Assembly (NCBI GenBank): GCA_036399915.1
Contig: DASWME010000013.1
Location: 1,724-65,723, forward strand
DNA length: 64,000 nt
DNA from: Thermoanaerobaculia bacterium
GTDB taxonomy: Bacteria > Acidobacteriota > Thermoanaerobaculia > Multivoradales > UBA5704
Direction of reading: 5' to 3'
In this document: positions 41,699-52,333 of the stretch, piece by piece
How the letters are laid out: each line of letters opens with the position of its first letter
How positions within the stretch are numbered: position 1 is the stretch's first letter
The notes under the pieces: generated by a model
Told to the model about the DNA's origin: nothing
The model's database searches: none
The model's input: the letters and a program-made list of their open reading frames with translations, nothing else
Translations under genes and position numbers: made by a program

Positions 41699-43270
<1,572 letters not shown>

Positions 43271-43275
43271 AGCGT

Positions 43276-43830
43276 CCGCCGGCGCAACGACAAGGCCTGC
43301 CCGCGCAGTCGGTGGATCCGCCGGCGCGGCGAGGACGTCCGCCGGCGCCGCGACACCTCCCGCCTGCAGCTCGACGAGGCCCGCCCGCGTAGCTGGTTCA
43401 TCCGCCTGCGCAGTTGGTCGAACCGCCCGCGTCTCGACAAATCCCGCCTGCAGCTCGACAAGGCCCGCCGGCGCGGCGAGAGCGTCCGCCCGCGTCTCGA
43501 CAAGGCCCGCCTGCCTGGCCGGTTGATCCGCCCGCAGCTCGACGAGGCCCGCCTGCGCAGTTGGTTGACCCGCCGCTGCAGGCGGGAGGACAAATTGCTC
43601 AGGCGGTAGGCCCGCCTGCTCAGGCGGCTGAGCAAATGACCCAGGCGGAAGGCCCGCTTGCCCAGGCGGGAGGACAAATTACTCAGGCGGCTGAGCAAGT
43701 TACGCAGGCGGGAGGACAAACTGCGCAGGCGGGAGAACAAATTGCGCCGGCGGTTGGCCAAATTCCTCGGGCGGACGAGCCAGCTGCGCAGGCGGGAGAA
43801 GAAATTGCGCCGGCGGTAGGCCCGCCGGCG
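43276..43830. repeat. Bipartite 21-bp array: 15 CCGCCNG-core units then 12 inverted CNGGCGG-core units
   Basis: Cores fall exactly every 21 nt (43276...43570; 43579...43810); the two cores are reverse complements. Confidence 0.92.
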
Positions 43831-43881
43831 CCGGCACGAGAAAGGAATGACAAGCGCGCCTTCGAAGGCCTGGCCCCCGGC

Positions 43882-47623: not shown

Positions 47624-49051
47624 ATGAGACGAGAGCATCTGCTGGCCCGCCTGCTGCGGGCGGTCTCCGGCAAGACCCAGGAGCAGTTCGGCGAGGAAAC
47701 CGGCGTGCACCCCTCCCTCATCGCCTTGATCGAGCTGGGGAAGGCCACGCCCGGCCGCGACCTTCTGGAGCGAATGGCGCGCTGCGCCTCGATCTCCCTG
47801 CCGGACGCCGACGAGGTCCTCGGCTCGTACGAGACGCTCCGCAGGACGCCCCAAAGGCAGGGCGGTGGTGTGGAGGACCTCTTCCGCGAGATCACGGAGA
47901 GGTTCGATACCTGGGCCAGGGCTGCCTACGGCCGTCTCCTGCGCCTCCCCCTGCCGGACCAGTCGCCGCGGGAGGAGGATCGCCGCCGGGCCGAGGAGCA
48001 GTGGCGGTTGTTGGCGGATCTCCCATCAGAGTCCAGGCTGGCGGTGGTGCGCGTGGCCGCGGAGTACCAGAACTGGGCGCTCTGCGAAAGGGTTTGCGCC
48101 GAATCGACGCAGCGAGCATCGAGCAACGTGGAGGAAGCGACGGCCCTGGCACGCCTCGCCGAGGAGATCGCGGAGCGGGTCCGCGGCCCCGAGGCCTGGC
48201 GCCTGCGGGTCCAGGGCTATGCCAGCGCGCACGGGGCGAACGCGCTGCGCGTCGCCGGCGAGCTGAGAGCGGCGGAGGCTGGCCTCGAGAAGGCCAGGCG
48301 GCTCTGGCACGCGGGCTCGGACCCCGAGGGATTGCTCGATCCCGGCCGTCTGCTCGACCTGGAGGCGTCCTTGCGCAGAGATCAACGCCGCTTTGCCGAG
48401 GCCCTGGCCCTGCTCGACGAAGCCGCGGCCGTGGGCCGCTCCCCCGGGCGCGTCCTGATCAAGAAGGGATTCACGCTGGAGGTCATGGGCGAGTACGAGC
48501 ACGCCATCGAGACCCTCCTTCAGGCGGCGCACGTGGTGGAGCGCCAGGGCGATGCGCGGCTTCTCTACATGCAGCGCTTCAACCTGGCCGTCCTCTGCTG
48601 CCATGTGGGCCGCTTCTCCGAGGCCACCGAATTGCTGGACCAGGTGCGGGACCTGGTTACGAAAAGGGGCGACGCCATCGAGCTCAACCGCGTGACCTGG
48701 CTGGAAGGCCGCATCGCGGCGGGCCTGGGCCGGCCGCACGAGGCCCTACGGCTCCTGAAGCAGGCGCGGGAGAGGTTCGCCGCGGAGAGGATGTCGTACG
48801 ACGTGGCCCTGGCGCTGCTGGAGGAGGCGGTGCTGCTCCTGGACCAGGGCCGCGCTGCCGAGGTCAAGGTCCTGGCCCGGGAGCTGACCAGGGTGTTCAA
48901 GTCGAAGGGAGTGCACCGCGAGGCCCTGGCCGCCCTGCGGTTGTTCAAGGATGCGGCGGACCAGGAAACCGCCACGGCCAGGCTGGCCCGCCGGGTGCTC
49001 GCCTACCTCTTCCGGACCCGCCACGACCCCGGCCTGCGGTTCGAGTCATAA
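47624..49051 (+). CDS. XRE-HTH + TPR regulator, copy 2B
   Basis: KTQEQFGEETGVHPSLIALIELG HTH; TPR body near-identical to 2A. Confidence 0.9.
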   Translation: MRREHLLARLLRAVSGKTQEQFGEETGVHPSLIALIELGKATPGRDLLERMARCASISLPDADEVLGSYETLRRTPQRQGGGVEDLFREITERFDTWARAAYGRLLRLPLPDQSPREEDRRRAEEQWRLLADLPSESRLAVVRVAAEYQNWALCERVCAESTQRASSNVEEATALARLAEEIAERVRGPEAWRLRVQGYASAHGANALRVAGELRAAEAGLEKARRLWHAGSDPEGLLDPGRLLDLEASLRRDQRRFAEALALLDEAAAVGRSPGRVLIKKGFTLEVMGEYEHAIETLLQAAHVVERQGDARLLYMQRFNLAVLCCHVGRFSEATELLDQVRDLVTKRGDAIELNRVTWLEGRIAAGLGRPHEALRLLKQARERFAAERMSYDVALALLEEAVLLLDQGRAAEVKVLARELTRVFKSKGVHREALAALRLFKDAADQETATARLARRVLAYLFRTRHDPGLRFES

Positions 49052-50977
49052 ACCGGGGTTGCACCGGCCGTTGACACCACCTACATCTACGACGACCCCG
49101 CGGTGCCGTTGTCCAAAGGCCGCCTGACGAAGATCGCCAGAAGCGGCTCCGAGGTCGCCTACGCCTACGACCGCTTCGGAAGGGTCACCCAGGATGGCGA
49201 GCTGACCTATCGATACGACCAGAACGGCAACCGCGCCGAGATCGGCTATCCTGGAGGGGTGACCGCGCGCTTGACGCACAACTTCGCCGACCGGGACGCC
49301 TCGCTGGAGGTGCAGGCGGGGAGCGCGGCCCCGCAGGCGATCGTTTCCGGCGCCCGCTACAAGCCCTTCGGCCCGCTCGCCGGCTTCACCTTCGGTAACG
49401 GCCTGGCCGAGATCCGGAGCTTCGATCCGCGCTACTTCCCCAGCCGCATCGAAGTGCCGGGGCGGTTGGACCAGCTCTACTCGACCGACAGGGTCGGCAA
49501 CGTTCTCAGCCTCAACCGGGCGGTGGGAGCGGACCGCTTCTTCTCGACCTTTGTCTATCAAGATCCACAGTACTTCTTGACCGAAGGCAACGGCCCCTGG
49601 GGACGGCGGGCCTGGAGCTACGACCGCATCGGCAACCGACTGAGCGAGATCCCCCCGGTCGACCTCGATCCGCCGGTGGAGATCTTCACCTACTCCTACC
49701 CCTCCAACCAGGCGGGCGGCCATAACCCCAAGCTGTCACGTATTGAACCGGCGCCGGGAGGAGAGCCGGGGAGCCATTTAGATTACGGCTACGATGCGTC
49801 CGGCAACGAGACCACGGTAGCCGCAGTCACCGGCGAAGAATCGGGCCGGACGAGCTTCCTTACGTACAGCGCCGAGAGCCGCCTCTCCCGGCTCTCGACG
49901 AGCGATGGGACGGCTTCGACCGAGCTGCTCTACGATGGCCGCGGGTTCCTGCGGCGCTCCCGGCTGACCTTCTCGAACTCCACTGACTTCGAGCAAACCG
50001 AGCCCACCTACAGCTCTGAAGGGCTGCTGTTAGCTCGCAAGATCCACCAGCAGAACACCCGCGGCGGGCGAGGAGATACGGGAGCCCCACCCTCGAGCCG
50101 AGTCGTCATGGAGACGGCCTACCTCTTCTACTTCGCGGGCCGGCCGGTGGCGCAGTTGACGCGACCGCAGGCGGGAGGGGGAGCGGATACGCTCCTCTAC
50201 CTCACGACCGATCATTTAGGCACGCCTATCCAGGCCACGGACGTGGCGGGCATGCTCGTGTGGGAGGGAGGACTCGATCCGTTCGGCACGCCGTTCGTTT
50301 TCCCTGCCCCCCGGCCTCCAGGGGAGGGTGAAGACCCGCAGGAGCCGCCCGAAGGTGAAGATCAGAGCGCCGCAGCCACGGCAACGATGGAGAGCGCAGG
50401 GATTTTCCTACGCTTCCCCGGCCAGTGGGATGACTCGAGTTTCCGCTCGCATGGTTTGCGGGGAGGGTTGTATTACAACGTGCACCGTTACTACGACGTG
50501 AGCACAGGCCGGTACACGAGGCCGGATCCGATTGGGCTGGCCGGCGGCGAAAACCTATATGTGTACGTCGGCGGAAACCCGATCACGTCCGTAGATCCAA
50601 CGGGCTTAATCGACGAGACTCGCTTCCCCACGCCCGACGAGATCGCCGAACTAACGCAGCGTCACTGTGCTCGCCAGGCCATTCTGCGGAACTACGGCGA
50701 CATGCGAGAGGCAAACTGGAGGCGCTCTGACAAGTACTTCCACTGCAAAGCAACCTGCGAGGCAGCAAGGTGTGGCACATTCGGCTTCAAGGAGGCTTGT
50801 GGGCTCGGCGACTTGCGCGAGTTCTTCGACCGACTGTTGGGAGATCCGATCAGCGCCTCGCAGGCGGATCAAGCGGCTAACCGTTTTGGCCGTGAGGAAG
50901 CGGGCAGGAAACCGAACTTGACTTGCCAGATTATCTGTTCGCAATATCGGCCGGCAGGCTTGCCGGAGAGGTACTGA
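49052..50977 (+). CDS. N-terminally truncated (orphan) RHS/YD-repeat protein with serum amyloid A-like C-terminal tip
   Basis: YD repeats (YAYDRFGR, YRYDQNGNR, WSYDRIGNR), DHLGTP, LRFPGQ, YYNVHRYYD, PDPIG...NP...DPTG core end; first possible start GTG 49103. Confidence 0.9.
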   Translation, partial: TGVAPAVDTTYIYDDPAVPLSKGRLTKIARSGSEVAYAYDRFGRVTQDGELTYRYDQNGNRAEIGYPGGVTARLTHNFADRDASLEVQAGSAAPQAIVSGARYKPFGPLAGFTFGNGLAEIRSFDPRYFPSRIEVPGRLDQLYSTDRVGNVLSLNRAVGADRFFSTFVYQDPQYFLTEGNGPWGRRAWSYDRIGNRLSEIPPVDLDPPVEIFTYSYPSNQAGGHNPKLSRIEPAPGGEPGSHLDYGYDASGNETTVAAVTGEESGRTSFLTYSAESRLSRLSTSDGTASTELLYDGRGFLRRSRLTFSNSTDFEQTEPTYSSEGLLLARKIHQQNTRGGRGDTGAPPSSRVVMETAYLFYFAGRPVAQLTRPQAGGGADTLLYLTTDHLGTPIQATDVAGMLVWEGGLDPFGTPFVFPAPRPPGEGEDPQEPPEGEDQSAAATATMESAGIFLRFPGQWDDSSFRSHGLRGGLYYNVHRYYDVSTGRYTRPDPIGLAGGENLYVYVGGNPITSVDPTGLIDETRFPTPDEIAELTQRHCARQAILRNYGDMREANWRRSDKYFHCKATCEAARCGTFGFKEACGLGDLREFFDRLLGDPISASQADQAANRFGREEAGRKPNLTCQIICSQYRPAGLPERY

Positions 50978-50986
50978 GGGTTGGCG

Positions 50987-51142
50987 ATGTCGAAATCACC
51001 GCGTGTCCTTTCGTTGGCCATTCTCGCGGCGTTGGTGGTCGCGGCGGTCATCTTTACGTGGCTTTGGCGGCAGCTTCAGATCGATAGGTGTCTTGACCGC
51101 GGAGGCAGTTGGGATTACTCCGCGGGTGCGTGCAAGCAGTAG
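50987..51142 (+). CDS. Candidate immunity protein, 51 aa, single TM + Cys pair (below ORF-track cutoff)
   Basis: Own translation MSKSPRVLSLAILAALVVAAVIFTWLWRQLQIDRCLDRGGSWDYSAGACKQ; GAGG upstream; 9 nt after the RHS stop. Confidence 0.7.
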   Translation: MSKSPRVLSLAILAALVVAAVIFTWLWRQLQIDRCLDRGGSWDYSAGACKQ

Positions 51143-51216: not shown

Positions 51217-51312
51217 ATGGCCGCTGTAGCCAGCGGCGAGGGCTCAGGGCGGACGAGTTTCCTCGACTACAGCGCCGAAAGCCGCCTCTCCCGGCTCTCG
51301 ACGAGCGATGGA
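51217..51312 (+). pseudogene. Relic fragment of a second RHS core
   Basis: Encodes SGRTSFLDYSAESRLSRLSTSDG vs SGRTSFLTYSAESRLSRLSTSDG at 49817-49909. Confidence 0.8.
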
Positions 51313-52210: not shown

Positions 52211-52333
52211 GGCCCGACCGCGGCCGCCTGCGCCAGGCCGCGGAGATCCCGGACGATCTGGGGCTCAGCCCGACGTTCGTGCCGTTCCTGACGATCGAGG
52301 CGTACGGGTACCTGGATTAGAATGTCCGCCGGC
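52211..52333 (+). repeat. Right copy (attR-like): orphan 3' end of malate synthase
   Basis: Encodes [34 protein letters not shown] vs ace[35 protein letters not shown]. Confidence 0.9.

Follow-up and report, generated by a model that had tools for sequence, protein, structure and literature searches.

Does the 51-codon frame that lies directly behind an SAA-like toxin tip encode a protein, and if so, what is that protein for? Within the window, the whole 64,000-nucleotide stretch of DNA analysed here, the frame runs from an ATG (50987-50989) to a TAG (51140-51142) on the forward strand and specifies the mini-protein MSKSPRVLSLAILAALVVAAVIFTWLWRQLQIDRCLDRGGSWDYSAGACKQ. The ATG is situated 9 nt past the TGA (50975-50977) that terminates the RHS open reading frame 49103-50977. 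Both codons were found where the preliminary description had placed a 51-residue frame, and the product contains exactly the segment DRCLDRGGSWDYSAGAC that was said to follow a single TM helix, the hydrophobic helix corresponding to residues 7-27. The reading that we favour, with a probability of roughly 0.8, is that the tip and the mini-protein are a toxin and its cognate immunity protein, that the tip is an exported Lipocone enzyme working on the outer side of the inner membrane, and that a small knob of the mini-protein would block the pocket of this enzyme. The features on which this reading is built are collected in Table 1. As a separate observation, the small ORF lies in the reading frame of the RHS tip (50975-50989), with just TGA and GGG TTG GCG between them; read-through of the TGA would join toxin and immunity protein as a single chain.

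Table 1. Features of the RHS-tip/mini-protein locus, in coordinates of the window.
Feature	Position	Strand	Basis and remarks
5'-truncated RHS gene, 624 aa: YD repeats, RHS core, SAA-like tip	49103..50977	+	Pfam RHS_repeat, RHS, SAA; tblastn
Toxin tip, prok-SAA / Lipocone family	50600..50977	+	PF00277, AF2, Foldseek, invariant columns
GAGGG, Shine-Dalgarno-like	50976..50980	+	6 nt 5' of ATG, overlaps RHS stop codon; read from sequence
Candidate immunity gene, 51-aa mini-protein	50987..51142, including stop codon	+	Family alignment, profile search, AF2
Hydrophobic anchor V7-W27, K/R-bearing N-terminus before it	51005..51067	+	Sequence; AF2; lipobox homologues
'Knob' D33-x-C35-L36-D37-x-G39-G40-x-W42-x6-C49	51083..51133	+	Invariant in 27 sequences; model
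RHS relic, 89 nt, 83% identical to 49820-49908	51223..51311	+	Repeat search; second tblastn match

The G+C content of the window is 70% and spurious long open reading frames abound, so that an open frame is by itself uninformative here and conservation must decide. A word-indexed homologue search with the single mini-protein sequence returned no matches; a profile of the family alignment, run against 1.84 billion cluster representatives, identified 2,747 clusters at E<=1e-3, 381 of them at E<=1e-10. In an alignment of 27 sequences, 26 of which are homologues from other genomes, eight residues are invariant (D33, C35, L36, D37, G39, G40, W42 and C49), and the membrane anchor is followed by the family motif [IV]DxCLDxGGxW-x6-C. 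Among the best 150 of the 2,747 matches, the median length is 60 aa; 139 possess one module and 10 possess two, the latter exemplified by P0003, P0005, P0008, P0011 and P0012 with tandem CLDxGGxW...C and 4 Cys. In three further proteins of 180-230 aa (P0066, P0082, P0116), the module is N-terminal and is followed by long C-terminal extensions. One match, P0004 (1,262 aa, 14 stretches), was discarded as a false positive, being a repetitive surface protein whose sole resemblance to the family is 'IDECLNQG'. The conservation of the family across phyla excludes a chance ORF, and sequence comparison thus identifies the 51-codon frame as a real gene, far beyond chance expectation.

The family has mostly remained uncalled or is named "hypothetical". 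No Pfam or NCBIfam model matches the mini-protein. An exact-sequence lookup in a collection of ~15 billion proteins did not return 7 of 10 sequences, the window copy included, which is consistent with the earlier remark that the gene is absent from the ORF track; two of the three sequences that were present carried names at source, namely 'hypothetical protein' and the IMG annotation 'YneF (UPF0154)'. For the window copy, promoter and terminator signals did not rise above shuffled expectation. A search of sequencing runs detected the stretch in soil-metagenome DNA runs only.

The RHS gene upstream is a fragment. Its open frame measures 641 aa in all and opens only 17 codons 5' of the GTG; adjoining it is an HTH-TPR gene whose end lies at 49051. 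By tblastn, the RHS ORF aligns with the last part (residues ~1103-1729) of a protein of 1729 aa encoded in a same-genus genome (G028), and this full-length homologue bears a Sec-type signal peptide at its N-terminus. Because the first ~1100 codons, signal peptide included, are missing, the RHS protein of the window cannot be delivered. Two full-length RHS paralogues with ~68% identity to the G028 protein are encoded on other contigs of the same genome (C148:1105-6282 and C344:45116-49750); their C-terminal tips are different ones, behind each of which lies a separate candidate immunity ORF, and they are possible recombination partners for the cassette. The RHS relic 3' of the cassette is debris of a displaced RHS copy. 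The G+C content of tip and small ORF is 0.59-0.60 relative to 0.70 for the whole window, and the GC3 is 0.71 in both relative to 0.83-0.96 in the other window genes measured. A low G+C content shared by tip and small ORF is as expected for one inherited cassette, and with equal GC3 in the adjacent tip, the low GC3 of the small ORF reflects foreign origin rather than non-coding status. Tip and small ORF are a foreign, orphan RHS-tip/immunity cassette. A search for homologues of the tip in the GenBank plasmid and phage collections returned none.

The C-terminal 100 residues of the RHS protein match the Pfam SAA family PF00277 with E=1.7e-24 (86.6 bits, cut-off 30.8). The AF2 model of the tip, at a pLDDT of 92, was queried against the PDB using Foldseek; human SAA1 and mouse SAA3 were the top matches (TM 0.86-0.92, identity 34-40%), and nothing else in the PDB came near. 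Invariant across 31 bacterial tips are, among others, H48, R73-E74, D77, D90 and A93-N94-x-x-G97-R98 (tip numbering), together with four cysteines arranged as CxxxC...CxxxC (C49, C53, C109 and C113). Animal SAA is not known to have these four cysteines. It is a secreted acute-phase apolipoprotein (PF00277; PDB 4IP8, 4Q5G) that resembles the tip in fold (TM ~0.9), in its 34-40% identity and in the H / RE / sNxxGR residues, and differs from it in having no RHS carrier and no known mini-protein-like partner. In the SAA-Wnt clade of the Lipocone superfamily, the H/E/sNxxGR set has been described as forming the active site (Burroughs, Nicastro & Aravind, eLife 2025, PMC12419801). The tip carries the H on H2, the E on H3 and sNxxGR on H4 within an SAA/Lipocone fold; it is a bona fide SAA fold in which the Lipocone active-site residues are kept.

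Given this tip, we queried how regularly the mini-protein accompanies its relatives. An SAA match was present in 3 of 60 related genomes, and both of those with a full-length RHS gene carry a small ORF directly 3' of the tip that encodes a hydrophobic helix followed by D-x-CLD-x-GG-x-WDY-x4-C. A scan with the tip alignment, restricted to one genome per species, returned 38 loci from Acidobacteriota, Gamma- and Betaproteobacteria, Cyanobacteriota and Nitrospirota. The small ORF played no part in locating 34 SAA-like tips that are complete or nearly so and come from genomes of four phyla; the DNA that follows each tip was read in six frames, and a family member was detected 3' of the tip in 29, with a start codon -14 to +18 nt from the tip stop; several starts overlap the tip stop as TGATG or TAATG. 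The linked tips belong to Acidobacteriota, Pseudomonadota, Cyanobacteriota and one unclassified MAG (L025). As at RHS-immunity loci generally, a small gene follows the variable tip directly, on the same strand, and is inherited with it. At one locus (L039), tip and small ORF are both broken, indicating joint decay. Across 26 pairs, sequence identity of the tip correlates with that of the knob (Spearman 0.28, permutation p=0.002) and hardly with that of the membrane segment (0.10). The preliminary description had proposed a candidate immunity protein and had fixed beforehand that a failure to co-occur with SAA-like tips would count against it; the association at 29 of the 34 tips supports that proposal.

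The remaining five tips comprise four with a different partner of ~150-195 aa and one without a partner. The alternative partner (L015:3375-3821, L017:2543-3127, L026:3006-3518 and L035:3277-3744) is a protein with a signal peptide or with a lipobox or TM segment; its members share the motif GW[IL]PxFLPxSAxxIxExHxLDTNE, a Pfam search with them gave no match, and they may correspond to the 'LP+Imm-BamE' of Burroughs et al. We considered whether the tips with the alternative partner constitute a separate subclass and dropped this division, as they are not one clade and the tip tree needs three changes; an extra 'RCG' cysteine was likewise dropped as a predictor of the partner. Since the four tips form no clade, the partner must have been switched more than once.

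The AF2 model of the mini-protein, computed with the family alignment, has a pLDDT of 94 and comprises a helix (residues 5-37) and two short strands (41-43 and 48-50). In the model, the helix is continuous from the membrane outward and carries D33, C35 and D37, with the G39-G40 turn next; C35 and C49 would be placed for a disulfide that staples the hairpin to the end of the helix. A Foldseek search of the PDB with this model returned no match. Lysine and arginine residues flank the hydrophobic helix on both sides, and the topology of the TM form therefore rests on lipobox variants and cysteines. In three homologues (L018, L028 and L029), a lipoprotein signal replaces the TM helix (FLSGC, FLSAC, LSGC), and the knob of these proteins is consequently exported; the LPAM_1 match among the lipobox variants is weak (19.4 bits, cut-off 20). 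The window protein itself does not contain a lipobox, defined as [LVI][ASTVI][GAS]C closing the signal peptide; no cysteine precedes its C35. Two other homologues (L030 and L032) possess an additional hydrophobic segment. Judged from the lipobox variants, the Sec signal at the head of the full-length RHS protein and the invariant cysteines (two in the knob, four in the tip), the knob most likely faces the periplasm. The same four features lend support to the earlier suggestion that an exported disulfide domain implies action of the toxin from the periplasmic or membrane side.

While the tip nearly always has the mini-protein beside it, the converse holds only weakly. The motif [IV]D[SRG]CLDRGG, taken from a 7-sequence alignment, identified 80 loci in a scan of metagenomes, and an SAA tip was present, in any frame and within about 2.5 kb, at only 12 of these. 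The mini-protein could accordingly be mainly a stand-alone envelope protein, serving for instance in a lipid-linked precursor pathway, that was co-opted at SAA loci or merely adjoins them in a role in toxin export or maturation. The 68 loci without an SAA tip speak for such a role, as do the very large size of the family with its 2,747 clusters and the long extra domains that follow the module in P0066, P0082 and P0116; the neighbours at the other motif loci are unrelated housekeeping genes (RuvB, M42 peptidase and topoisomerase, for example), an assortment without a recurrent partner, and clustering and Pfam annotation of the neighbours likewise revealed no recurrent non-SAA toxin beside the orphan copies. 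The asymmetry itself, with a toxin that is nearly always paired and a mini-protein that is often alone, is nevertheless the classic signature of immunity genes, and orphan immunity genes show just this pattern, although it is also compatible with a function of the mini-protein on its own. The mini-protein is tied to the tip by start codons near or within the tip stop, by decay of the two together and by a common base composition. Orphans are also carried by two same-order genomes without an SAA match (L048 at G045:C6; L049, L050 and L052 in G047), and in one of the two, G047, RHS repeat debris and a second partial module lie near the orphan L052, a setting typical of immunity genes. One orphan copy among these four has GG changed to RG. 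On balance, we consider a mainly stand-alone role unlikely, if still the strongest of the alternatives.

The hydrophobic segment could alternatively be a cleaved Sec signal, in which case the product would be a free disulfide peptide of ~20 residues, periplasmic or secreted and akin to a signal or a bacteriocin. The N-terminus does resemble a signal peptide, with lysine and arginine preceding ~20 hydrophobic residues, and the lipobox variants demonstrate that the segment can serve as a cleaved signal; however, these variants stay tethered to the membrane through their lipid, an AxA-type site is absent from the window protein and from most homologues, and the modelled 21-residue hydrophobic stretch appears continuous with the helix that bears the invariant D33, C35 and D37. 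A free peptide is therefore very unlikely. Least credible is the view that the frame arose by chance in GC-rich DNA or is a relic from which this organism makes no product; in its favour one could cite the truncation of the RHS gene upstream, the promoter-like site that was not found in the window copy and a GC3 below that of the other measured genes. The frame is nonetheless intact, with its ATG, the GAGGG site and all eight family-invariant residues, and the GC3 is the same as that of the adjacent tip; the cross-phylum conservation disposes of the chance half of this explanation and does not bear on silence in this genome.

For the immunity protein that we favour, the following model emerges. 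The mini-protein would be a type II bitopic inner-membrane protein with a cytoplasmic N-terminus, and a lipoprotein in some relatives. Its helix would leave the membrane and end in a knob of ~17 residues, DxCLDxGGxW-x6-C, organized as a GG turn and a β-hairpin and secured by one disulfide. The knob would thereby be held against the inner membrane on its periplasmic side, the place where a Lipocone enzyme that attacks lipid head groups would be expected to dock. The tip, a predicted disulfide-bonded Lipocone enzyme, may target an undecaprenyl-pyrophosphate-linked precursor by analogy with TelC; the knob would bind the incoming tip and block its pocket. Speculatively, D33, D37 and W42 could take the place of an anionic lipid head group. 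Whether the knob is on this account a membrane-tethered mimic of such a head group, plugging the active-site cone of SAA-fold enzymes, seems doubtful to us; were it so, the knob would rank among the smallest natural toxin inhibitors, and toxin/knob pairs or knob peptides would furnish genetic or chemical probes of whether SAA enzymatically attacks bacterial lipid carriers, a use that follows from the retention of the pocket residues in animal SAA and from its 34-40% identity to the bacterial tips. An orphan immunity gene could still guard the cell against toxins of its neighbours, and the orphan cassette could recombine into either of the full-length RHS genes of the genome.

A family of this kind has been anticipated. 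In a genome-based prediction, Burroughs, Nicastro and Aravind (eLife 2025, PMC12419801) placed prok-SAA among the Lipocone toxin tips of polymorphic toxins, described 'TM+Imm-SAA' immunity proteins after RHS-, MuF- and PGBD-linked prok-SAA toxins, and predicted that the immunity proteins of prok-SAA act in the periplasm or membrane. Their network file records Imm-SAA with Prok-SAA, RHS and MuF upstream. The window gene and Imm-SAA are alike in lying directly downstream of a prok-SAA tip and in encoding an N-terminal TM anchor with an extracytoplasmic domain, the published architecture 'TM+[TM+TM+]Imm-SAA' allowing one or three TM segments. Both the RHS context and the PGBD-fused SAA context of Imm-SAA were reproduced for the mini-protein family, the latter by two IMG/VR viral contigs (L134:2180-3011 and L135:2144-2960) in which PG_binding_1+SAA is followed by TM+mini-protein; in a phage, such a pair could function in cell-wall penetration or lysis, with the mini-protein guarding the lysogen. 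Duplication of the module is another common trait, with Imm-SAA repeated within the protein in 6/85 cases in the published network and two modules in 10 of the best 150 matches of the mini-protein family.

The correspondence does not extend to the published fold. The text of PMC12419801 gives Imm-SAA an alpha-helix, four successive beta-strands and four cysteines conserved without exception, whereas the window protein and most of the family possess one helix, two short strands and two cysteines; in the mini-protein family, four cysteines occur only in two-module relatives such as P0003 and P0005. The published description applies either to the doubled form or to another domain. Compared by context and published description, the mini-protein is very probably Imm-SAA; we do not assert identity because the four-cysteine description mismatches the single-module form.

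A characterized counterpart is the pair formed by the LXG toxin TelC of Streptococcus intermedius and its immunity protein TipC (Whitney et al. 2017, as cited in PMC12419801). TelC is the only Lipocone toxin with biochemistry and acts on lipid II (PMC12419801). The likeness to the model proposed here lies in a Lipocone toxin whose extracytoplasmic target is a lipid-linked precursor of the cell wall and in a membrane-anchored immunity protein, likewise extracytoplasmic, that neutralises it. TipC differs from the mini-protein in its much larger folded domain and shows no sequence relation to it; TelC, for its part, falls into a different clade of the Lipocone superfamily and is delivered via the T7SS of Gram-positives, unlike the SAA-like tip, which is predicted here from sequence and model. 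Among periplasmic immunity proteins against Gram-negative envelope toxins, Cmi of colicin M and the Tsi/Tli proteins of the T6SS are TM- or lipid-anchored at the periplasmic face of the membrane, neutralise toxins directed against peptidoglycan, its lipid carrier or membrane lipids, and comprise full domains in proteins of ~100-300 aa. The exposed part of the mini-protein, by comparison, amounts to only ~17-24 residues.

Prok-SAA tips, membrane-anchored immunity proteins and their periplasmic action were already part of the computational prediction of 2025 (PMC12419801). The present analysis contributes confirmation, a more precise delineation of the module (the end of a helix, a GG turn, a hairpin and one disulfide, or a lipoprotein form in some homologues), and evidence that family members recovered by motif are for the most part orphans. 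A very large family of ~50-aa envelope proteins, unmodelled in Pfam and NCBIfam and usually missed by gene callers, is thereby brought into view. The SAA-like domain and its putative 51-aa antidote constitute a compact two-gene system that could be assayed in E. coli and would offer a handle on the SAA fold; as animal SAA has no agreed biochemical function, such an assay could reveal the substrate and the site of action of this fold.

The surroundings of the cassette are also of note. Within the ~9 kb enclosed by the two copies of a 121-nt direct repeat (43163-43283 and 52213-52333; 84% identity) lie the truncated RHS cassette, an XRE-like gene, two HTH-TPR genes and tandem arrays with a 21-nt unit. 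Of the two repeat copies, the left one forms the 3' end of ORF 41699-43270. The arrangement is reminiscent of an island whose target end has been duplicated. Two arrays of 21-nt repeats are arranged head-to-head at 43276-43858, between ORF 41699-43270 and a TPR gene on the minus strand.
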